Positions 51,651 through 63,312 of a DNA stretch of 64,000 nucleotides are shown one piece after another. The DNA is taken from the NCBI GenBank assembly GCA_023664945.1, contig JAMPER010000001.1, forward strand, positions 210,829-274,828. The letters run 5' to 3'. The DNA comes from Alistipes senegalensis (GTDB lineage Bacteria; Pseudomonadota; Gammaproteobacteria; Burkholderiales; Burkholderiaceae_D). The notes beneath the pieces are model-generated. The model saw only the letters and a list, made by a program, of their open reading frames with translations, ran no database searches and was not told the DNA's origin. The translations under genes and the position numbers were made by a program. Position 1 is the first letter of the stretch. The number at the start of each line of letters is the position of its first letter.

Positions 51651-54600
51651 TTACAGGACCGGGGAAAGCGCGGAAGCGATATCTTCCACTTCTGCTCCCC
51701 GGCGTTTTGCCATGTCTGCCAGCTGGTCGCTATCGATTTTTCCTACCTGGAAGTAGCGTGCCTGGCGATGTGCAAAATAAAAACCGGCAATTGATGAGGC
51801 TGGCGTCATGGCAAGGGATTCCGTTAAACCCATGCCGATCTGATCGCACTTGAGCAGCCTGAAAATGGCTTCCCGTGCCGTATGTTCCGGGCAGGCCGGG
51901 TAGCCGGGGGCGGGACGGATACCCTGGTAGGCTTCCTTGCGGAGAGCTTCCGGGGAAAGCTGCTCGTCTGGCGCATATCCCCACAGGTCTTTGCGTACCA
52001 GCTCGTGCAGGTATTCTGTCAGCGCTTCCACCAGCCTGTCGGCAAGTGCCTTCAACATGATGCCGCTGTAGTCGTCATTGGCTTCTTCAAAACGGCGAAG
52101 CGGCGCTTCCATGCCGATGCCTGCCGTAACGGCAAAAAGTCCCATGTAATCCGGTATGCCGCTTTCCTTTGGCGCGATAAAGTCTGCCAGGCACAGGTTG
52201 GGGCGCTCTACACCGTCAATGACCGGGCGCGCTGTCTGTTGCCGCAGGCCGTAGTAGGTAAAGGCAACCTGGGAACGGGTTTCATCAGTGTAAATTTCAA
52301 TATCATCACCTGCGCTGTTGGCAGGCATGAGTGCCAGCGAGGCATGGGCGGTGAGCCAGCGGCCCTCGATGAGCTTTTTCAGCATGGCTTGCGCATCGGA
52401 AAAGAGGCGGCGTGCCGCTTCCCCGTGGGCGGGGTCATCCAAAATGGCCGGATAGGGGCGGTGCATATCCCAGGTATGGAAAAACGGGCCCCAGTCGATA
52501 TAGGACGCAATCGCGGCCAGATCCACGTTTTTCAGGAAACGCTGCCCGAGGTAACGCGGTCTGACCGGCGTATCTTCCCCTGCAAAAGAAAGTTTTGCCT
52601 TATTGGCCCGGGCGGCTTCAAGCGGGATCATGTCAATCGGTTTTTTCTCGGCATGCAGGCGCCGCACGCGCGCATAATCTGCTTTTAGCGCTTCCAGGTA
52701 AGTTGCCCGGGTTTCCGGGCTTAACAATGCCTGCGCAACAGTAACGGTGCGCGACGCATCCGGGACATGAATAACCGGGCCGTCATAGTTGGGCGCAATT
52801 CTCACAGCCGTATGGAGGCGGCTGGTGGTTGCCCCGCCAATCAGGAGGGGGATTTTCCGGTCGCGGAAATACGGGTCGCGCTGCATTTCGCTGGCAACAT
52901 GCGCCATTTCTTCCAGGGAAGGCGTAATCAGGCCCGAGAGGCCGATAATATCGGCGCCGACTTCCTTGGCCCGCGCCAGGATATCGGCGCAGGGCACCAT
53001 GACGCCCATATTTTCCACTTCAAAATTGTTGCACTGGAGGACAACGGCCACAATATTCTTGCCGATATCGTGCACATCTCCCTTGACCGTGGCAATCAGG
53101 ATGCGGCCTTTGGAAGCAGTCTGGCCGGACTTTTGCTTTTCTTCTTCAATATAGGGAATCAGGCAGGCTACGGCTTCTTTCATGACGCGGGCCGATTTGA
53201 CCACCTGGGGCAGGAACATTTTGCCCTGGCCGAACAGGTCGCCTACGGCGTTCATGCCGTCCATCAAGGGGCCTTCAATAACCTGGATGGGCCGCCCTCC
53301 ACCGTTCAGCACTTCTTGCAGTACTTCTTTGGTATCGGCTTCAATCCATTCGGTTTGCCCGTGGATCATGGCGTGGGCCAGCCGTGCGCGAACCGGTTCG
53401 GCGCGCCACTGTAGCCCGGCATTTTCCTTTTTCTCTCCGGCCTCAAAGCGGTCTGCCACTTCAAGCAGGCGCTCGGTAGCGTCCGGGCGGCGGTTCAACA
53501 CCACATCTTCCACCCGTTCGCGCAAATCGGCCGGGATATTATCATAAACCCCGATCATGCCGGCGTTGACGATGCCCATCGTCATGCCGGCGGCAATGGC
53601 GTGATACAGGAAAACGGTATGGATGGCTTCGCGGGCGGCATTATTGCCGCGCAGGCTGAAGCTCACGTTGGAAACTCCTCCGCTGATTTTGGCATGCGGC
53701 AGGTTGCGGCGTATCCAGCGCACTGCTTCGATAAAGTCCACCGCGTAATTGTTGTGCGCTTCTATGCCGGTGGCAACAGCAAAGATATTGGGGTCAAAGA
53801 CAATGTCTTCCGGGGGGAAGCCTGCCTGCTTCACCAGCAGGTCATAGGCGCGTTGGCAGATGGCAATCTTCCGCTCAAACATATCTGCCTGGCCTTCCTC
53901 GTCAAAGGCCATTACGATGGCGGCTACCCCGTAGCGGCGGCAAAGCCGCGCATGGTGGAGGAATTTTTCTTCCCCTTCCTTGAGTGAGATGGAATTGACA
54001 ATGGCCTTGCCCTGGAGACATTTCAATCCGGCCTCAAGCACTTCCCAGCGCGAGGAATCCAGCATGACCGGGATACGGGCAATATCCGGCTCCGAAGCGA
54101 TCAGGTTCAAAAAGCGCGTCATGGCCGCGACAGAATCCAGCATGGCCTCGTCCATGTTGATATCAATTATCTGCGCGCCGTTTTCCACCTGCTGGCGGGC
54201 CACGGCAATCGCCTTGCCGTATTCCCCGTTTCGTATCAGGCGGGCAAATGCCTTGGAGCCGGTTACGTTGGTACGCTCGCCTACGTTGACAAAAAGCGAG
54301 TTTTCGTCAATCACAAACGGTTCCAGCCCGGCCAGCCGCATGGCCGGCTCAATCACAGGAACTTTGCGCGGCGGGACGCCTTCAAGGGCCTGCGCAATGG
54401 CGCGGATGTGGTCCGGCGTGGTGCCGCAGCAGCCGCCTGCCATATTGATGAGGCCGCTTTCGGCAAATTCTTCCAGGAAGGCAGCCGTATCTTCAGGCCG
54501 CTCGTCAAAGCCTGTGTCGCTCATCGGGTTGGGCAGCCCGGCATTGGGATAGATGCAGACATGGGTATCGGCAATCCGGGAAAGCTCTTCCACATAGGGG

Positions 54601-55409
54601 CGCATCAGCGCCGCGCCCAGCGCGCAGTTCAGCCCGATGGTCAGCGGCCTGGCATGGCGGACCGAATACCAGAAAGCCGCCACTGTCTGGCCGGAAAGGA
54701 TACGGCCTGAAGCGTCCGTTACCGTGCCGGAAATCATGACAGGCAGTTTTTTGCCGCTTTCTTCCATGCAGGCATCCAGGGCAAAAAGGGCGGCCTTGCA
54801 GTTGAGCGTATCAAAAACGGTTTCTACCAGAAACAGGTCAACGCCGCCTTCGATGAGGGCGCGCGCCTGTTCGGAATAGGCGGCAACCAGCTGGTCAAAA
54901 TCAATATTGCGCGCGCCGGGGTCGTTGACATCCGGCGAGATGGAAGCCGTCTTTGGTGTCGGCCCGATGGAACCGGCGACAAAACGGGGCTTCTCCGGTG
55001 TGGCAAACCGTTTGCAGGCTTCGCGGGCAAGCCTGGCCGAGGTGACATTCATCTCATGCACCAGGTGCGCCATGTGATAGTCTTCCTGCGCAACCGCTGT
55101 TGCGCCGAAAGTGTTGGTTTCAATCACATCTGCCCCGGCAGCCAGATATTCATCATGGATGGCGGCAATGATTTGCGGCTGGGTCAGGGAAAGCAGCTCG
55201 TTGTTCCCGCGCAGGAAAAGCTCGCGGTTTTCCGCTGAGGGCGGTGCGGCAAAATCCGCAAAACGGCCGTCTTTTCCACCCCGGTAATCCTCTTCTGTCA
55301 GGCTGTAGCGCTGGATCATCGTTCCCATCGCGCCATCCAACAGCATAATGCGTTTTGAAAGAATTTCCCGCAGTTGCGCTTCAACCGGTGACATGATGTT
55401 TGGCTCCAT
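51651..55409 (-). CDS. metH: Cobalamin-dependent methionine synthase
   Basis: LDGAMGT; GLNCA; GGCCGT; VGERTN; DVHDIGKN B12 motif; GIRPAPGYP; start may be 55394. Confidence 0.98.
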
Positions 55410-55513
55410 GTGAGTATGTCTGGACAACCGGCGCAAAGGGCCAGGATAGCCCAAAATTATAGCAATTCCCTAAAAAGCAGGCAAAAACAGGGTGTTGGGT
55501 TATCTGCTGCCGC

Positions 55514-56248
55514 CTATTTTGCTGCGGAAAGTGCCCGGGAAAAATCGGCTTCGTCAGGCAGGCCGGTGATGCGTGAGCCATCCTGAAAGAAAATGACCGG
55601 TGTGCCCGTTATCTCAAATTGCCGGGCCAGGCCAAGCACGGCGTCGCCGGTATAGGCGCACTCTTTGGCCGCTTCTGGCGGGGTTTGGCCCTCCAGCATC
55701 CAGGCGTTCCAGGCCGCCGCCGGATTGGGCGCACACCAGATATTTCTGGAAAGGGTACGGGATTGTTCCGAGAGAATATTGAGCGGGAAAACATATACGG
55801 TCAGGTTATCCACGTTCTTTAACAGCTTTTCCAGGCGCTTGCAGTAGCCGCAGTTCGGATCGGAAAAAACAGCCACTTTCCGTTCCCCCTTGCCGTTGAC
55901 CTTTCGGATAGCCTGATCAAGCGGCAGGTCGGAAAAGCGAATCCGGCTGATAGCCTCAATCCGGTCTCGGGTATAATCCTGCCCGGTTTCAATATCTATT
56001 ACCCGGCCAATAAAGAGATAGCGTGCACGGCTGTCGGTATAGACAATCCGGTTGCCTACCCGTACTTCATACATGCCCGGCCAGGGCGTTTTTTTCACGG
56101 ACGTGACGTTTTCCCCCTGAAGCACCCTTTCCTTGAAGCGCTGGCGGATGGTGTTTTCCTGCGCAAAGGCCAGGGAAGCGCAAAAGAGCGCGCCGAAAAG
56201 GCAGGCTGCCGGGGCGGCAAGCCGAAAGGGATTCTTCAAAAAGCGCAT
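55514..56248 (-). CDS. dsbC: Thiol:disulfide isomerase DsbC
   Basis: Signal peptide; FSDPNCGYCK; ITGTP. Confidence 0.92.
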   Translation of the reverse strand: MRFLKNPFRLAAPAACLFGALFCASLAFAQENTIRQRFKERVLQGENVTSVKKTPWPGMYEVRVGNRIVYTDSRARYLFIGRVIDIETGQDYTRDRIEAISRIRFSDLPLDQAIRKVNGKGERKVAVFSDPNCGYCKRLEKLLKNVDNLTVYVFPLNILSEQSRTLSRNIWCAPNPAAAWNAWMLEGQTPPEAAKECAYTGDAVLGLARQFEITGTPVIFFQDGSRITGLPDEADFSRALSAAK

Positions 56249-56342
56249 GGGGTGTCCTAGGTGAGTTGTTTGCCGCATTATACAGGCCGCTTTGCACAGA
56301 GCGTGGCGAACCGCGTTTTTTTTGCTACAATACCCTCTCTTT

Positions 56343-56418
<76 letters not shown>

Positions 56419-56433
56419 CCAGTACTGTCCAAT

Positions 56434-56476
56434 AACCCGTGTAAAGCCAAGTGTTTACGCGGGTTTTTTGTTTTTT
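56434..56476 (+). terminator. Terminator after tRNA-Thr
   Basis: 12-bp stem with one G-U pair followed by a long T tract. Confidence 0.8.
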
Positions 56477-56577
56477 AACTTCCTGTAATGTGCGTTGATA
56501 TTCGGGAAATACGGGGGTATCTGTTTTGGGGTATGCGCAGATATCCCCAAAAATGGATGTCCCATAGGCGCTGATAT

Positions 56578-56979
56578 ATGGCAAAAATCATCCAGCTGCT
56601 TGATATTCAGCCACGTCATGCCAAGCCCAAAGAAAAGTCTTACAAGCTGGCAGATGGCGGCAGCCTGTATCTTGAGGTTGCACCAACCGGCGGGAAACTA
56701 TGGCGAATGAAAGCAAAGCGGGCAAGCTGTTAAGCGGGTGGAGCTTACCATGACAGGACGCGGTTTGCGGGGAGTAGTCAGTACGGGATTAAACAAGCTT
56801 GGTTTTAACCCGCGTCTGGTTGAAGCGCAGCCTGGGCATAAAAGGGGAACGCGATAGAAGCCGCCTGTAACGATGCAAAGCACCTGAAAGACCGGCGCAA
56901 GATGATGCAAAGGTGGGCGGATTATCTGGACAGCCTGAAAACCGGCAAGATAATCACATTTCCGAGCAAGGCGGCATAA
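56578..56979 (+). pseudogene. P4-family integrase remnant (arm domain joined to C-terminal tail, core deleted)
   Basis: KPKEKSYKLADGGSLYLEV..GGKLWRMK then stop at 56733; later MTGRGLRG..STGLNKLGF..EAQPGH, frameshift, AACN...RRKMMQRWADYLD. Confidence 0.88.
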
Positions 56980-57073
56980 CAGAATAAGCCGCGCCTAGTC
57001 AGACGTGACGGAAACCGGGAACCCTGCCCGGCTGGCGTGGCTTTCTAGTTTAGGGGAAACGAGAGGGACGTTT

Positions 57074-57907
57074 ATGGATAAAGAAGTAATGCGGGTTATC
57101 CATGATGTACTTAAGAAGAAAATTGAAAATTACACAGACAAGCATACGCTTCCTGACAGCGTTAAACATTTAGGCTATGGTATTTCAATCCTGTATGGAG
57201 AAAGACTTTTAGAGCTAAATAATGCACAAGAATTTTATATTGATGCTTCGCCAAATAGCACTGACGAATATTTAGCAACGGCATGTGCTTATATTGAAGC
57301 GAAAAAAATTTATGACCTCACGCTTGATATTAAGATAGGTAACTATCTTAAAACATTGCCTGAAATATACGGTAAAGCGCGTTGGCTAATAGAATGTATA
57401 TCCGGCGGGTTTTATAGAACCATAGAACGCAAATTTAATCATGGGCGTTTAATGATTAAGGCTGCAGCGCTTTATTTTCTGTCAAAAGCCGACGAATGTG
57501 AGGCCAAAGGCGAGGTTAGAAAGGCGTTTGATTGGATAAATGAAGCGTTTACTCTGGACAGATTTGATTCTGTTTATGATGTAATGGAAAGAGGTGCGGA
57601 AGCTGGCGCAAAGGGTTGTATAGAAGGGATGAAATACAGAATATCAAGACAAAATTCAGAAAAACAGAAACAACGGCACAAGAAAGAACATGTAGAAGAA
57701 AAAAGACTTACGCAGGAACTTTTTGATTCTTTTGAGGCCAAAGCGGAAGGCAAAATAAAGCTCGGAAAAAGGAAAATGTTTTGTCTTCAGGTTTACGACA
57801 AACTGGAATATTCCTTGTCCACAGACAGCATAAAAAATGTTTCTGTAGGAACTATTGAAAAATGGGTAATAAGGCTTGAAAAAGGAGAAAGGATTTATGA
57901 AGAGTAG
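57074..57907 (+). CDS. Hypothetical island protein (about 277 aa)
   Basis: Long open AT-rich ORF, GAGGG RBS; possible C-terminal HTH (SVGTIEKW). Confidence 0.8.
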   Translation: MDKEVMRVIHDVLKKKIENYTDKHTLPDSVKHLGYGISILYGERLLELNNAQEFYIDASPNSTDEYLATACAYIEAKKIYDLTLDIKIGNYLKTLPEIYGKARWLIECISGGFYRTIERKFNHGRLMIKAAALYFLSKADECEAKGEVRKAFDWINEAFTLDRFDSVYDVMERGAEAGAKGCIEGMKYRISRQNSEKQKQRHKKEHVEEKRLTQELFDSFEAKAEGKIKLGKRKMFCLQVYDKLEYSLSTDSIKNVSVGTIEKWVIRLEKGERIYEE

Positions 57908-58021
57908 TTATGCCTCTACGCCGTAGAGTGGGTAATTTACGCCGTATGGCTGTTTTTTCAATTATCATATATGACAATCTTCACTCCATACCGCGCTACG
58001 CGGGGCAATATGGAGTGAAAT

Positions 58022-58567
58022 ATGACAATTGCACAACAATCCACCCAAAAACGAATCATCCGCTTGCCTGAAGTTTGCCGGAAACTTGGCTTATCCAAAC
58101 CTACTGTATGGGTATATGCCCGCACAAGGCCAGATTTTCCAAAGCCTATCAAATTGGGTGGGAACGTTACGGGCTGGCTGGAATCTGAAATAGACGCATG
58201 GCTTGTTGCCGTATTGCCGAATGGGCAGAATAAGGGGGCTGACATGCGGGACAGTAGCAAAAAAGAAAAGGCTGCCAACGGCAAAGCCGTGGCTGCAAAA
58301 AAGATACGCAAAAATGACAACGGCAGCAGCACCGAATCACAGTGTGTACGGTTGTTAAAGGCCTTGATGCAGGGGAGCGTGACAACCGAAGAGGCGCGGC
58401 AGATGGGGATATACAGCCCGGCGCCGCGTATTTTTGAGCTGAAGCGGCGAGGCTGGGCGATAACCGCCGACATGAAACGGGTATCTGCGGCGGATGGGCG
58501 CCTGCATCGTGTGGCGCGTTATCACCTGAACCAAAGTCATCCTGTTATTATTTTAACGATAAAATAG
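58022..58567 (+). CDS. alpA: AlpA-family regulator fused in frame to a second HTH protein (HTH_39-like)
   Basis: IIRLPEVCRKLGLSKPTVW...FPKPIKLG...W.ESEIDAW; C-half LLKAL..GSVTT.EAR...APRIFEL...HRVARY; internal RBS+ATG at 58244. Confidence 0.82.
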   Translation: MTIAQQSTQKRIIRLPEVCRKLGLSKPTVWVYARTRPDFPKPIKLGGNVTGWLESEIDAWLVAVLPNGQNKGADMRDSSKKEKAANGKAVAAKKIRKNDNGSSTESQCVRLLKALMQGSVTTEEARQMGIYSPAPRIFELKRRGWAITADMKRVSAADGRLHRVARYHLNQSHPVIILTIK

Positions 58568-58907
58568 AGGAAAGGTTGACAAGGCGTTTTCTGTTTTTCT
58601 GTAAAAACCGGCAGTAAAATGAGAAAATGCCTTATGGTAAATTTAATAGGTGAGAGGACAGGATTTAATCCTGGAGGCATTGTGGCTAAAAATAAGTGCA
58701 AGTTTCTTTTTAGGAAGCTCCTTCAATTTTAGTTTGTAATTTTGTATCACTAAAGAAAAGTTCTCTTGTTTATTATTGTGATGTGCATCCTTTGCCAAAA
58801 AAGTTTGGTTATATATAAAAAGGGCATGTCAATTTTTGTTATCAGTTTGGAAGCAAACGGTTTTTCCTGTTCTTTTTCATTATAGGTTCCAATGCTATCA
58901 TCACGGC

Positions 58908-60338
58908 ATGAATAATGCGCTTTTGCAGCAAATGATGAATAAACCCGAACCGGCAGAACCGGCATCCGGGCCGCGGCGCATCCTGGGGCTGAAGGAAGCA
59001 GTTGCTTTGATTGCCGGCATTGTGATTGGCGCGGGGATTTTCAAAACGCCTGCGCTGGTTGCCGGGATGACCGGCAGGCCCGGATGGATGTTTGCCGCCT
59101 GGGCATTGGGCGGCGTGGTTTCGTTTGTCGGTGCGCTTTGCTATGCCGAGCTGGCAAGCGCTTACCCTCACGCAGGAGGAGATTACCATTTCCTGTACCG
59201 TGCCTATGGCCGTTCGGTGGCTTTTCTTTTTGGCTGGGCGCGGCTTTCGGTGATTACCACCGGCTCCATTGCCCTTTTGGCTTTCGTCTTTGGCGACTAT
59301 ATGAACCATGTTTTGCCGCTGGCGTTGTGGAGCCAAAACAGCGGCCCGCTGGTTTATGCCGTGTCGGCCGTGCTGGTGCTTTCCCTCCTTAACCGGCTGA
59401 ATGTGCGCACCGGCATGGCTGCCCAGACAGGGCTGGCGGCGCTTCAGGCGCTAAGCCTTCTGTTTATTGTCGGCACGGCGGTTTTTCTGGCGCAAGGCGG
59501 CGGAGCAGCTCCCGTTGCTGCGGCATCGCCTGCCGTGCCGGATGGCGGCTTTTTTCCGCCTGCTTTCGGCCTGGGCATGGTTTTTGTGCTGCTGACTTAT
59601 GGTGGCTGGAACGAGGCGGCCTATATCAGCGCGGAAATCCGGGGCGGGAGACGCAGCATGTTTTATGCCCTGGGGCTTTCCATTTTGGTCATTACGCTTT
59701 TTTACCTGCTGGTTACCTGGGCTTACCTGAAAGGGTTGGGCATGGCGGGCATGGCTGCTTCACAGGCCATTGCGGCGGAAATGATGCGGCAGGCGTATGG
59801 CGCGCCGGCAGAGCGCCTGCTTTCCCTGATGATTGCGGTTTCGGTGCTGACTTCCATTAATGGCACCATGATTGTCGGCGCGCGCACCAGTTACGCCATG
59901 GGGCAGGACTGGCCTGTTTTGCGCAAGTTTGGCGTCTGGGATGCCCGGCGGGATACGCCGGCCAATGCCCTGTGGGTGCAATGCGCCGCCGCGCTTGTGC
60001 TGATTGGCATAGGCGCGTTGACCGGCGGGGGATTCAAGTCGATGGTGGAGTTTACTGCGCCGGTATTCTGGTTTTTTTTCCTGTTGACCGGCCTGGCCCT
60101 TTTTATTCTCAGGCGGCGGGAACCGGAGGTTCCCCGACCGTTCAGGGCGCCGCTGTATCCGCTGGTTCCGCTCCTTTTCTGCGCCACTTGCGCCTACATG
60201 CTGTATTCCAGCCTTTCTTTTGTCTATGACCAGTCCCTGGGCGGGATAAATGCTGCCTGGATTGGTGTGGGCGTGATGGTTTCCGGCCTTTTTCTCCTTT
60301 GGCTGGCGCGGCTGGCCGGAAAAAAAGTGCCGCGCTAG
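58908..60338 (+). CDS. APC-superfamily amino acid permease (LAT/SteT-like)
   Basis: IVIGAGIF TM1; GGDY.FL.RAYG; YGGWNEAAY.SAE; RPFRAPLYP; about 12 TM; start may be 58932. Confidence 0.93.
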   Translation: MNNALLQQMMNKPEPAEPASGPRRILGLKEAVALIAGIVIGAGIFKTPALVAGMTGRPGWMFAAWALGGVVSFVGALCYAELASAYPHAGGDYHFLYRAYGRSVAFLFGWARLSVITTGSIALLAFVFGDYMNHVLPLALWSQNSGPLVYAVSAVLVLSLLNRLNVRTGMAAQTGLAALQALSLLFIVGTAVFLAQGGGAAPVAAASPAVPDGGFFPPAFGLGMVFVLLTYGGWNEAAYISAEIRGGRRSMFYALGLSILVITLFYLLVTWAYLKGLGMAGMAASQAIAAEMMRQAYGAPAERLLSLMIAVSVLTSINGTMIVGARTSYAMGQDWPVLRKFGVWDARRDTPANALWVQCAAALVLIGIGALTGGGFKSMVEFTAPVFWFFFLLTGLALFILRRREPEVPRPFRAPLYPLVPLLFCATCAYMLYSSLSFVYDQSLGGINAAWIGVGVMVSGLFLLWLARLAGKKVPR

Positions 60339-60616
60339 TTTGGGCTGCCGTTTTTTGCTGCGGCAGAAAATTTGACAGATTGCTTTTCCTATAGGCAAAA
60401 TGAACATCGGAATCCCTGATTGTCTGCATAAGAAAGGCGGCAGACAGTGCAGGATCAGGCAGCTTTTTACCTGTGCCTTTTTCAGGCAGGCAGTTTTTTC
60501 CTGCCCGGGCAAGGGAGGGGAAAAGCGTTTCGTTGTCCGGAAAGCGAATTTTTCCCGCTGCGCGGCCGCCCGGAAAAAACGCATTGGACGGCAGGTCAGT
60601 TTGGAGGGGGAACGGT

Positions 60617-61276
60617 ATGGCGGCAACCAAACGCAATCAGATTATTTTCCCGAGCAACGAAGAAGACAGGGCGATTACTGCTGCTGCCTTGGCTGACCCT
60701 GATGCGCCGCCGCTGACAGAAGCGCAGCTGGCGGGGATGCAGCGGCTGGGCCATCATTTTACCGACAGCGAAAACAGGCTGCATATGGTGAGGACAACGC
60801 CGGGCAGCGGGTGTCTGGCGCGCACCTTGTACAAAAGCACGGCGGCCATCACCATTAGGCCCTGTCTCTCAACCCGGCCGGAATATGTGCCGCCTGCCGC
60901 TGACAAAGAAAATGTGCCGTGTTTTTATTGCGCTTACAAAAAAGAAGGCGGGCTTGGTTTTTGCAAGCGCAGCAAATGTATGGAAGTGGTGTTTGATTTT
61001 GCCAGGGATGCGGCAAACAAGAACCGGCATAAAATTTTTCTTGCCGATGCGGCACATCTGGACTGGAACAGTGTGCTGGCCTTATCATGCACAGATAAAG
61101 GGAACAGGCTCGGGCTTGGTTTGATTGAACAAAGGGCGCATGTTGTCGTTTTTGCCGATATGGGGGGCTTGCGCCGGGTAATCAGCCTGCGCCGGGCCAA
61201 CCTGAAAGAAGCGCTGCATTATGCCGGCCAGACGGCGCAGGGCGGCATGCAGGGTTCACGCGGCCAGGCAACCTAA
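60617..61276 (+). CDS. Degenerate BrnA-like N-terminus fused upstream of a BrnT-like toxin (possible pseudogene)
   Basis: EEDRAITAAALADPDAPPLT at the N-terminus; from 60980 FD.ARDAANK.RH.I.LADAA.LDW...VVVF....RRVISLRRAN. Confidence 0.65.
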   Translation: MAATKRNQIIFPSNEEDRAITAAALADPDAPPLTEAQLAGMQRLGHHFTDSENRLHMVRTTPGSGCLARTLYKSTAAITIRPCLSTRPEYVPPAADKENVPCFYCAYKKEGGLGFCKRSKCMEVVFDFARDAANKNRHKIFLADAAHLDWNSVLALSCTDKGNRLGLGLIEQRAHVVVFADMGGLRRVISLRRANLKEALHYAGQTAQGGMQGSRGQAT

Positions 61277-61332
61277 TATGGGCAAGGGACAGAAAGAAGG
61301 AAAAGCATGAGCGGAAGAAAAAGGGGCTTGCC

Positions 61333-61965
61333 ATGAAGTTTCTGCAACGCTCCGGCGTGGCGCTGGCCGTTTTTTTGGGCGGTATCTTGGCGGCATGTCT
61401 TTTGCTTGTTTTTTCCGCCCAGGCGCAGTTCGGGCTGGAAGAATTTATGGGGCCGAAACTGGATGCCGGGTTTATTGCCACCTATCCCGAAGTGGTGGAC
61501 GGCATGATTGATCTTGCCGGTGTGAATGAACACGACCTGGTTTATGACCTGGGCAGCGGCGACGGGCGGATTGTGATTGCCGCGGCCAAACAGCGCGGCG
61601 CCAGGGGGGTGGGTGTGGATCTTAACCCCAAGCGCATTACGGATGGCATTGTCAATGCCAAGGCAGCCGGGGTGGAAAACCTGGTGCGGTTTGAGCTGGG
61701 CAATTTCTTTGAGGTGGATTTTTCCGATGCTACCGTAGTGATGCTATATTTGCCTGCCGAGCTGAATCTTCAGCTTCGGCCTTATATCTGGAAACAGCTC
61801 AAGGTGGGCGCTCGGGTTGTTTCCCATGATAACGACATGGGGCCGGAGTGGCCGCCCGAGAAGACCGCGCCGTTCGGCAACAAGGGCATTTTCATGTGGA
61901 CAGTAACCGAGGCACAGAAAAAAGCGGTGGAAAACTGGGAACCGCCCAAACGGGCTGCCCCCTAG
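61333..61965 (+). CDS. Class I SAM-dependent methyltransferase (FAM173/aKMT-like) with signal peptide
   Basis: YDLGSGDGRIVIAAA; GVDLN; ATVVMLYL; RVVSHD; N-terminal hydrophobic stretch ending AQA. Confidence 0.9.
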   Translation: MKFLQRSGVALAVFLGGILAACLLLVFSAQAQFGLEEFMGPKLDAGFIATYPEVVDGMIDLAGVNEHDLVYDLGSGDGRIVIAAAKQRGARGVGVDLNPKRITDGIVNAKAAGVENLVRFELGNFFEVDFSDATVVMLYLPAELNLQLRPYIWKQLKVGARVVSHDNDMGPEWPPEKTAPFGNKGIFMWTVTEAQKKAVENWEPPKRAAP

Positions 61966-61999: not shown

Positions 62000-62647
62000 T
62001 CAATGCAGCGTATTTGGGGCGGCGCTGGCGTTGCCGCCGTGGAAATGGCGGTAAAGCTCCGGCAGGTTGGCAACAAGGGTTTTCACAATTTCCTCGCGGT
62101 CTTCCGCATGGATAAGCCCTTCCTTGTTTTCGGGTGAATTCTCAAAATACAGCGTGAGGATAGGCGTGAGCAGGTTTTCTTCTTCTTGCGATTGTTCCAG
62201 CAGCTCGTTCCAGCTTTCCCGGTATTTGTCCACCGCCAGCACGAAACCCAGCGCCCAATCGTTGCCGCTGACCTTGAAATTATCATCGGAATACAAAAAC
62301 GGATAATAGGATTCCCCGTTTTCCAGCATCCCTTTAATATGGTCCCAGTGCTGCCTTAAACTGTTCTGTATTTCTTCTGCCTGGGCAGGAGAAGCGTATT
62401 CCGGTTCCTGTCCGCCGAAAATATAGGGGATAAACGCTTCCGGCCCGTCTGCGTCCGGCCCGCATATCAGCCCGCAGAAAAAACCGTCAAGAATTTCCAT
62501 GTGCATCCCGTTGGGGTGGCTTTCCAGGAAAATTTCCAGCTTTTCAAATTGTTTGTCATCCAGCTTTTCCTGTCCGGAGGAAGGATTCAGGAAACTGTCG
62601 AGATCAAAATCCGGCGCATCCGGGTCGGTAATGTTTTTCTTGGACAT
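62000..62647 (-). CDS. UPF0149/YecA-family protein
   Basis: LDGFFCGLICGP; WALGF; acidic composition. Confidence 0.85.
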   Translation of the reverse strand: MSKKNITDPDAPDFDLDSFLNPSSGQEKLDDKQFEKLEIFLESHPNGMHMEILDGFFCGLICGPDADGPEAFIPYIFGGQEPEYASPAQAEEIQNSLRQHWDHIKGMLENGESYYPFLYSDDNFKVSGNDWALGFVLAVDKYRESWNELLEQSQEEENLLTPILTLYFENSPENKEGLIHAEDREEIVKTLVANLPELYRHFHGGNASAAPNTLH

Positions 62648-62892
62648 AGGCAAAGGGGAATAAAAGAAATGAATAAAAGCGGGCAGCCCGCCCGGCTTCT
62701 TCCGGGAAACGCCAGCAGAATCATTATAGTACAGCTTTGCCGTCTGATGAAAATTATTCCCTGTGCCAGAAAGCGGGCGCACAGTGGGCAGAGAGCGTGC
62801 CGGTTTGCTTTTGCTTAATCCTTTTGCTGTGGAAAAAGGGTAAGTTGTTTCAGGCAGGAAAGGTATTTCAACCCGCTTTGCAAGGAGAAAAA

Positions 62893-63312
62893 ATGGATCG
62901 TTTCGCAACGGCCGTCTGGGAGGGCGGCATCAAAACCGGAAAGGGCGCGCTGACTACGGAAACCGGGGCGCTTTCCCACATGCCTTATTCTTTTTCCGCC
63001 CGCTTTGAAGACGGGCAGGGAACCAATCCCGAAGAGCTGGTCGCGGCAGGCCATGCCGGATGCTTTACCATGGATTTGTCCGGCCGGCTGGAGCGGGCCG
63101 GCATAACAGGCCGCATTGAAACCAGGGCAACCTTGACGCTGGAAAAAGGGGAAAAAGGCTTTGCCGTTACCCGGATTCATCTGGATGTTGCGGCGCAGCT
63201 TCCCGGCGTGGATGAACGGGCATTTCAGGAAGCGGTGGGCAAGGCAAGGGAAAATTGCCCCATATCCCGCCTGCTGGATACGGAAATTACCGTTTCTGCC
63301 CGTATGGCATAG
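62893..63312 (+). CDS. osmC: OsmC-family peroxiredoxin
   Basis: [25 protein letters not shown]; NCPISRLL; AGGAG RBS. Confidence 0.93.

Follow-up and report, generated by a model that had tools for sequence, protein, structure and literature searches.

Linkage of a LAT-type permease to a predicted exported aKMT-like methyltransferase in diderm bacteria: a candidate module for methylation outside the cytoplasm

A 64,000-nucleotide stretch of contig JAMPER010000001.1 (assembly GCA_023664945.1, deposited as Alistipes senegalensis and placed by GTDB in Burkholderiaceae_D; positions 210,829 to 274,828 of the forward strand; hereafter the window) carries a permease gene of the L-type amino acid transporter (LAT) type and, downstream on the same strand, a gene for a small methyltransferase that is related to the archaeal protein-lysine methyltransferase aKMT and begins with an apparent export signal. 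The same two genes were found side by side in at least six bacterial phyla. This pairing is real and goes far beyond chance, and genetic coupling of the methyltransferase to one LAT-type permease, which in two cases is also physical, is strongly supported. We are highly confident that the exported methyltransferase is functionally coupled to this permease as well. The pairing points to a so far undescribed system for the methylation of extracytoplasmic targets. To our knowledge, chemistry that depends on S-adenosylmethionine (SAM) is regarded as restricted to the cytoplasm of bacteria, and a supply of SAM beyond it is not known. Full-text searches of the literature returned no paper on the permease–methyltransferase pair or on bacterial SAM carriers of the APC superfamily, and no paper containing 'periplasmic methyltransferase', 'SAM in the periplasm', 'exported methyltransferase' or 'extracytoplasmic methyltransferase'; the literature searched showed neither a SAM exporter nor a periplasmic SAM-dependent methyltransferase of bacteria, and no proteomic or reporter data on the location or signal cleavage of the methyltransferase.

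Conservation of the permease–methyltransferase pair

Linkage was surveyed from both genes. For the methyltransferase side, 80 loci from an alignment search for methyltransferase homologues in contigs of one genome per species were combined with five earlier loci, and a permease orthologue beside the methyltransferase was called by tblastn at E ≤ 1e-100. The permease orthologue (42–73% identity) directly adjoined the methyltransferase in 38 of these 85 loci, with pairs in Pseudomonadota, Bacteroidota, Acidobacteriota, Myxococcota, Cyanobacteriota and Ignavibacteriota; paired taxa included Oxalobacteraceae, Polaromonas, Azohydromonas, Moraxellaceae, Steroidobacteraceae, Sphingobacteriales, Pontibacter, Proteiniphilum, Melioribacteraceae, Pyrinomonadaceae, Anaeromyxobacteraceae, a deltaproteobacterium and cyanobacterium PCC 7702. 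All methyltransferase-seeded loci belonged to diderm lineages. The commonest arrangement was permease followed by methyltransferase on the same strand; the order was reversed in Pyrinomonadaceae, and in Steroidobacteraceae and others the permease was flanked by two methyltransferase genes. About nine of the unpaired loci had too little upstream flank to be judged, and most of the others were from Acidobacteriota. For the permease side, metagenome contigs were searched with the permease alone and 80 loci were collected, of which 55 had an adjacent methyltransferase, 15 had too little flank and 10 had no methyltransferase despite at least 900 nt on both sides; the methyltransferase was thus present at about 85% of the informative loci. 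An earlier, sequence-only reading of the window had suggested that the pairing occurs elsewhere too, and these counts bear it out; conserved linkage, the lack of which it had named beforehand as a reason to abandon its proposal, holds across phyla in both search directions.

The genes that flank the pair are otherwise unrelated across loci. In Oxalobacter vibrioformis the permease and the methyltransferase are separated by 172 nt and in O. aliiformigenes by 47 nt, with different flanking genes. A third conserved gene, as a candidate substrate, was looked for by all-versus-all clustering of the open reading frames (ORFs) of 82 loci, called with a crude ORF caller that also took antisense ORFs in GC-rich DNA, and no family occurred in more than 6 loci.

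Two in-frame fusions of permease and methyltransferase were found, P0129 (695 aa, Oxalobacter sp.) and P0360 (636 aa), which are regarded as independent because they are just 47% identical. In both, the permease C-terminus is followed by a basic linker, one transmembrane (TM) helix (the hydrophobic helix of the methyltransferase, as the 13th) and the methyltransferase domain. The C-terminus is cytoplasmic in LAT structures of the APC fold, and a single TM helix behind it would therefore place the methyltransferase domain outside. No further fusions were present among the top 120 matches of a search seeded with P0129; P0360 was found through a search of representative clusters and not through the fusion-seeded search. 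A TPMT-like methyltransferase upstream of the fusion in locus L086 was rejected, as it has no signal sequence and is unrelated.

A second exported methyltransferase subfamily lies just upstream of the same permease subfamily in a dozen loci, sometimes together with the short type (examples in the table). Its members have about 290–310 aa and consist of a signal peptide, the motif 'GQxGKDVVWVPT', the methyltransferase domain and a beta-rich C-terminal extension of ~120 aa, for which no Pfam match was obtained. Proteins with two or three methyltransferase domains and tandem methyltransferase genes also exist. In P0370, an N-terminal TM anchor is followed by two TlpA-like thioredoxin domains and the methyltransferase domain, a thioredoxin layout that is typical of periplasm-facing reductases and therefore agrees with an extracytoplasmic methyltransferase.

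Other architectures of the domain were seen in P0365, P0389, P0415 and P0315 and in P0273 and P0274, comprising NTP_transf_5 (an uncharacterised nucleotidyltransferase) joined to a methyltransferase domain, and three methyltransferase domains in tandem. Noviherbaspirillum album has one permease-linked and one unlinked methyltransferase locus (L010, L029), and a tandem methyltransferase pair follows the permease in Massilia (L007) and in a metagenome-assembled genome (MAG) of Burkholderiales (L030); the paired and unpaired copies and the tandem genes suggest that one permease can serve several methyltransferases.

Export signal and catalytic domain of the methyltransferase, and assignment of the permease

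The N-terminus of the window methyltransferase reads as the sequence-only reading had described it (M1-KFLQR, V9–F27, AQA|Q) and has the basic n-region, hydrophobic h-region and small-x-small c-region of a tripartite signal. By our own heuristic, 142 of 143 methyltransferase ORFs have a signal-like N-terminus, and in every homologue inspected the signal-like segment precedes the conserved pre-methyltransferase (pre-MTase) motif. Some 44 of the 143 ORFs carry a twin-arginine (RR) motif, many of them canonical (RRRTLLLSAAA in Massilia, loci L007 and L012, and in Telluria; RRQFL in L065 and L071; RRDFL in L109; RRHFL), and lipoboxes were found as IAGC (L043), IAAC (L049) and VSGC (L062), with the forms SIAGC|TT in PCC 7702, QIAAC|N and PVSGC|A. 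Methyltransferases of Bacteroidota have short classical Sec signals (...CTGAYA|QQ), and those of the Oxalobacter clade have a long hydrophobic core of 19–22 residues. Export is the only sensible role for signals of the twin-arginine translocation (Tat) and lipoprotein kinds, and export of the methyltransferase is well supported. Charges around the helix are positive before it and net negative after it. The sequence-only reading had set a downstream start at MGPKL as a finding that would tell against it; such a start is unlikely, because the 38 codons upstream of MGPKL stay hydrophobic in diverged relatives (56–73% overall identity) and evolve under constraint, with ratios of non-synonymous to synonymous substitution (dN/dS) of 0.17–0.24 (0.17 for the N-terminal signal against the sister MAG L167). 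One methyltransferase entry, P0095, is annotated in the database from an internal Met. From the signal-like ORFs, the Tat and lipobox forms and the topology of the fusions, the catalytic domain is very probably extracytoplasmic, as had been proposed for the periplasm; the N-terminus of the Oxalobacter proteins may be cleaved at AQA|Q or may be retained as an anchor. An 'LAAC' lipobox in the window protein was considered and rejected, since neither the Cys nor the motif is kept even among homologues of 90% identity and the hydrophobic stretch runs on past it.

The suggestion of an aKMT-like core was upheld by family, structure and model comparisons. The top NCBIfam match of the methyltransferase was NF041081 (archaeal protein-lysine N-methyltransferase; E = 3e-31, 108.4 bits), below the equivalog cut-off of 200 bits, and the protein is therefore a relative of aKMT and not an equivalog. 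Sequence matches in the PDB were 5bxy (9e-42) and aKMT 5fa8 (1.5e-29). An AlphaFold2 model (mean pLDDT 87) shows residues 4–38 as one long helix, joined through a linker of low confidence to a compact domain that starts at residue 47; with this model, Foldseek returned 5bxy at a root mean square deviation (rmsd) of 1.0 Å over 146 residues (50% identity), followed by aKMT 5fad/5fa8 at 2.1 Å (38–39% identity) and then PrmA. The domain has a seven-beta-strand Rossmann fold with motif I (D-x-G-x-G-x-G) and the acidic residue after strand 2; D72, G74, G76, D77, G78, R79, D96 and N98 are invariant in 44 homologues, F47-I-A-T50 aligns with the pre-MTase Y-V-P-T of aKMT and 5bxy, and T50, L43 and D44 are likewise invariant among the homologues. 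With its SAM-binding residues retained and its matches to structures bound to SAM or S-adenosylhomocysteine (SAH), the domain looks catalytically competent. It evolves with dN/dS of 0.07–0.09. Clustered at 50% identity, the family is sizeable, with 360 clusters at E ≤ 1e-30 and 4341 at E ≤ 1e-10.

Like the window protein, aKMT of Sulfolobus islandicus (5FA8/5FAD), a crenarchaeal enzyme of broad specificity, is a minimal seven-beta-strand domain of ~150 residues, and the two share the pre-MTase (Y/F)-x-x-T, DLGxGDGR and GNFFEVD; unlike it, aKMT is cytoplasmic and has neither a signal sequence nor a transporter partner. The closest solved relative, 5BXY (Salinibacter ruber, SAH complex), is a structural-genomics entry in which 'RNA methyltransferase' is a deposition label and the crystallised chain starts just before the pre-MTase motif. 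A review (PMC9006661) notes that aKMT has bacterial homologues, its only remark on them, and describes FAM173A/ANT-KMT and FAM173B/ATPSc-KMT as aKMT relatives whose substrates are inner-membrane transport proteins. The FAM173-type layout (N-terminal segment, transmembrane domain (TMD), pre-MTase region, MTase domain) is seen in the AlphaFold2 model and in the family alignment; this likeness is drawn from the published description (PMC9006661) and the shared layout. The target lysines of FAM173 enzymes face the matrix, topologically the bacterial cytoplasm, whereas the window methyltransferase domain is predicted to be periplasmic.

The permease, present intact and co-oriented with the methyltransferase as the sequence-only reading had it, has 12 TM helices with the motifs GIVIGAGIF in TM1 and TYGGWNEAAY in TM6, and matches AA_permease_2 of Pfam (E = 1.9e-45). 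Its top NCBIfam match was TIGR00911 (L-type amino acid transporter subfamily; E = 2.2e-56), with 191.3 bits far below the curated cut-off of 701.8 bits. Its nearest solved structures are xCT (1.1e-48), b0,+AT and bacterial BasC (7e-45), to which residues 6–466 align across all twelve helices with GAGIF and YGGWN kept; the features by which LAT carriers are recognised (12-TM APC fold, TM1 GxGIF, TM6 aromatic-x-G-W) are all present. By motifs and structure matches, and not by curated score, the permease is assigned to the LAT branch of the APC superfamily. With the LAT family (TC 2.A.3.8: SteT, BasC, xCT, LAT1, b0,+AT) it shares fold and substrate-binding motifs, and it differs in its score (191 bits versus the 702 cut-off). 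The TM1 G-x-G-I-F and TM6 Y-G-G-W-N motifs suggest that alpha-amino-acid binding is retained; the small Gly of Y-G-G-W-N is also present in LAT1, and presumably it is to be read functionally as in LAT structures. The permease group is a widespread bacterial subfamily of its own, defined by linkage to the exported methyltransferase. 'Amino acid permease' is the only annotation on its database entries, and only APC-family models match it, with no homology to the known SAM carrier families searched for (SLC25A26, CTL843-type DMT).

The source of the window is an Oxalobacter, and the window permease is 96% identical to its counterpart in a MAG labelled O. formigenes. The permease start is more likely M10 (58935) than the 58908 implied by the sequence-only reading, which is corrected here because M10 matches the orthologue P0121 (96% identical); a sigma-70-like promoter match, of a frequency near chance, ends at 58901 and therefore likewise suggests a start codon at 58932 or 58935, not 58908. 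Both genes of the pair are under strong purifying selection (dN/dS about 0.1): values for the two genes were 0.09 and 0.12 against L167 and 0.07–0.12 against more distant Oxalobacter, with 0.07–0.12 for the permease against three Oxalobacter orthologues.

Proposed cofactor exchange and competing explanations

We propose that permease and methyltransferase make up a conserved module of two components, which serves SAM-dependent methylation beyond the cytoplasmic membrane. There is strong support for a methyltransferase that carries an N-terminal signal or anchor of the Sec type, or in other lineages one of the Tat or lipoprotein kind, and that very probably has its aKMT-like domain of ~150 residues in the periplasm, tethered to the inner membrane or near it; the permease would export SAM and take back the product SAH, and this exchange would supply the donor and clear the inhibitor in a compartment without ATP or SAM synthetase. 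Lysine amino groups of envelope proteins are proposed as the most likely acceptor because of the homology to aKMT and PrmA, with a small-molecule or lipid amine as the alternative. In the window, the two genes of the operon have been parted by an inserted BrnT-like ORF. Carriers of the LAT type bind the alpha-amino-acid part of their substrates, and those characterised are obligate exchangers; since both SAM and SAH are alpha-amino acids, we propose the permease as a SAM/SAH exchanger. The presence of several methyltransferase types at one permease and the lack of a conserved third gene fit a shared need for cofactor better than a shared substrate, and the second subfamily, the tandem and multidomain methyltransferases and the unpaired copy of N. 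album favour cofactor supply over a substrate-specific link. Movement of SAM out and SAH in by the permease, with envelope-protein targets such as porins, is what we infer as the most economical account; the full chain, SAM/SAH exchange and envelope methylation included, is put forward tentatively and is close to evenly balanced, leaning slightly towards doubt.

Within the APC superfamily, yeast Sam3 is a SAM permease, which imports SAM. The logic proposed here, that of a carrier which brings SAM to the methyltransferases of a compartment without SAM synthesis and takes SAH away, is the same as in mitochondrial SAM/SAH exchange by SAMC/SLC25A26, in Chlamydia CTL843 (PMC3104491) and in proposed SAM transporters of the plant Golgi (bioRxiv 10.1101/2021.07.06.451061), all of them functional analogues that are not homologous to the permease. 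Apart from Sam3, these SAM carriers belong to the MCF, DMT and MFS superfamilies, and none of them, Sam3 included, is bacterial-periplasmic or stands in an operon with its client enzyme. Surface proteins of bacteria can be extensively lysine-methylated, as by the lysine methyltransferases of outer-membrane proteins PKMT1/2 in Rickettsia and KmtA in Acinetobacter (PMC11784438); unlike the methyltransferase described here, these enzymes belong to an unrelated, much larger methyltransferase family, and the KmtA paper (PMC11784438) mentions no export signal or transporter partner.

If true, the proposal would reveal a bacterial SAM/SAH exchanger for the first time, offer a mechanism by which envelope and surface proteins acquire methyl-lysines, and give the LAT family, whose human members are of medical importance, a new class of substrate; it would also touch on the descent of the mitochondrial FAM173 enzymes from bacteria. 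Its widest form would hold that in diderm bacteria of many phyla a LAT-type exchanger, dedicated to methylation in the periplasm, recovers SAH and feeds SAM to one or several exported aKMT-like methyltransferases, soluble or tethered to the membrane, that methylate envelope proteins or other envelope amines, as a bacterial counterpart of the mitochondrial pairing of SAMC with matrix methyltransferases and a possible evolutionary source of TMD-anchored FAM173 enzymes; in this form it is possible and, on balance, doubtful. As the module has just two genes and can be found in genera that are open to cultivation (Massilia, Noviherbaspirillum, Oxalobacter, Sphingobacterium, Pontibacter), the hypothesis is directly testable.

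Several points weigh against cofactor exchange by the permease. About half of the methyltransferase loci, mostly Acidobacteriota, have no permease nearby, and about 15% of the informative permease loci have no methyltransferase. The solute of the permease is indicated only by the annotation 'amino acid permease'; cationic SAM that moves outward for neutral SAH would have to overcome the membrane potential, porins could let periplasmic SAM escape, and Tat signals in some lineages could mean that the cofactor is loaded in the cytoplasm. Signal assignments were made by our own heuristic and visual inspection. Both fusions have an internal Met ahead of the TM helix. P0129 comes from a draft assembly, and P0360, which begins at Val, looks N-terminally truncated; a small chance therefore remains that they are read-through artefacts. 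A SAM/SAH riboswitch was not found: Rfam scans at gathering thresholds of the window and 18 diverse loci gave only tRNAs and the int-alpA RNA, and no other regulatory RNA. For co-transcription and the methyltransferase start, RNA-seq data were looked for, and among the four or eight runs there was no usable RNA library.

Among the alternatives, the exported or anchored methyltransferase might methylate or regulate the permease itself, as enzyme and substrate, with the permease moving an ordinary amino acid. Tight adjacency, two covalent fusions and the fact that no other conserved candidate substrate gene was found suit such a relationship, as does the precedent of the FAM173 enzymes, TMD-anchored aKMT relatives that methylate the carrier ANT and the c subunit of the ATP synthase (PMC9006661); a periplasmic methyltransferase would still need a source of SAM, which is not provided here, and soluble Sec or Tat, lipoprotein and multidomain forms in two methyltransferase subfamilies misfit one fixed loop lysine, while many methyltransferases have no permease nearby. 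We regard this explanation as improbable. The same grade, unlikely, is given to the idea that the methyltransferase-fold protein is a periplasmic enzyme or binder of an exogenous compound whose ligand or product the permease takes up, for example to salvage SAM, SAH or methylthioadenosine-like amino-acid nucleosides, or to methylate and detoxify an environmental small molecule; the module would then handle nutrients or xenobiotics and not modify proteins. A minimal catalytic domain without a dedicated substrate-recognition domain, the occurrence of the module with multiple paralogues in soil and gut bacteria, and a permease family best known for amino-acid movement would all be expected of such a system; set against them are the invariant SAM-binding and pre-MTase motifs, as in an active transferase, and the closest characterised relatives, which are protein-lysine and N-terminal methyltransferases (aKMT, PrmA). 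A methylating detoxifier would, moreover, also need SAM outside the cytoplasm. We know of no APC carrier that uses a binding protein.

A further alternative is a cytoplasmic methyltransferase, attached by an N-out anchor or started at MGPKL and using cytoplasmic SAM on an imported solute or on a target at the cytoplasmic face. The Oxalobacter core of 19–22 residues does resemble a TM helix more than a typical signal peptide; FAM173B of mitochondria, for all its TMD, methylates a lysine that faces the matrix; and the internal start annotated for P0095 is of this kind. However, the positive charges lie before the helix and the net negative charge after it, the twin-arginine and lipobox signals of homologues would serve no purpose in an N-out anchor, the 38 codons upstream of MGPKL are kept as coding sequence, and in both fusions the helix comes after a 12-TM APC fold whose C-terminus is cytoplasmic, which forces the methyltransferase outside; a cytoplasmic location is therefore judged very unlikely. 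Adjacency without functional meaning, through shared ancestry or chance, could be read from the window itself, in which the two genes are 994 nt apart with another ORF between them and lie beside an island remnant. Recurrence of the pair in at least six phyla among unrelated flanking genes and in both gene orders, a methyltransferase at about 85% of the informative permease-side loci and two gene fusions speak against it, and with linkage surveyed in both directions this explanation is effectively refuted and keeps a negligible probability.

Genomic context of the pair in the window

The 994-nt gap between permease and methyltransferase in the window is due to the insertion of an ORF of 219 aa with a C-terminal BrnT-toxin-like domain, which is not part of the conserved module and is absent from O. 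vibrioformis and O. aliiformigenes. Residues 126–198 match BrnT_toxin (2e-08, 34.9 bits versus a cut-off of 34.5); for the N-terminal 125 residues there was no family match, and beside the ORF no separate adjacent BrnA antitoxin ORF was recognised. In L167 the ORF stands in the same place, with 94% nucleotide identity over 765 aligned nt and a ratio of non-synonymous to synonymous polymorphism (pN/pS) of 0.27 on 39 substitutions between window and L167. The sequence-only reading had called this ORF a toxin–antitoxin relic: the BrnT likeness stands, just above the cut-off, and 'relic' overstates the decay, since the ORF is intact in both genomes and its pN/pS is 0.27. It may be a live, atypical toxin-domain protein.

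Features of the window (positions counted from its first letter) and, in the last row, loci of the second methyltransferase subfamily outside it
Feature	Position	Strand	Remarks
LAT-type APC permease	58908..60338	+	476 aa from 58908, probably 467 aa from 58935
aKMT-like class I SAM-dependent methyltransferase	61333..61965	+	210 aa
Predicted export signal or signal anchor of the methyltransferase	61333..61425	+	MKFLQR n-region, V9-F27 core (19 residues), A29-Q30-A31|Q32
Seven-beta-strand methyltransferase domain, residues 43-200	61459..61932	+	LDAGFIAT pre-MTase, DLGSGDGR motif I, D96, N98
ORF with C-terminal BrnT-toxin-like domain	60617..61276	+	219 aa; inside mechanical ORF 60473-61276; between permease and methyltransferase
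Sigma-70-like promoter match	58874..58901	+	TTTTCA-16-TATCAT with TG; consensus scan, frequency near chance
metH (B12-dependent methionine synthase) and dsbC	51651-56278	-	MetH 1267 aa
tRNA-Thr(CGT)	56343-56418
P4-type integrase N-terminal fragment	56578-56733		51 aa; Arm-DNA-bind_3 3.9e-7
int-alpA RNA	56988-57055		Rfam
ORF without family assignment	57005-57907		300 aa
AlpA+HTH_39 protein	58022-58567
Second exported methyltransferase subfamily (other loci)	L152:871-1875, L127:2279-3295, L163:2503-3450, L066:3604-4479, L021, L024, L015, L110

Upstream of the permease, the region 56343–58900, with a tRNA gene, an integrase fragment and about 2 kb of DNA of 39% GC, looks like a genomic-island remnant. 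Downstream of the methyltransferase lie genes for UPF0149, OsmC and CheA. L167 has the order permease–BrnT–methyltransferase–UPF0149–OsmC–CheA–CheZ with other cargo at the same tRNA, and O. vibrioformis and an Oxalobacter sp. keep permease–methyltransferase–UPF0149–OsmC–CheA with other DNA upstream. As the downstream order is shared and the upstream DNA varies, the pair is read as core genome bordering an integration hot spot and not as island cargo. In both the window and L167, dsbC and the methionine-cycle gene metH lie just before the tRNA, metH at ~3.5 kb upstream; since metH does not adjoin the pair in O. aliiformigenes, its closeness to a putative SAM-related module was treated as probably coincidental. 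The mechanically called ORFs for UPF0149 (302 aa) and OsmC (191 aa) at 62000–63312 are longer than their orthologues elsewhere (215–216 and 139–140 aa), and the true starts of both are probably internal; as called, the two ORFs overlap head to head at 62737–62908.

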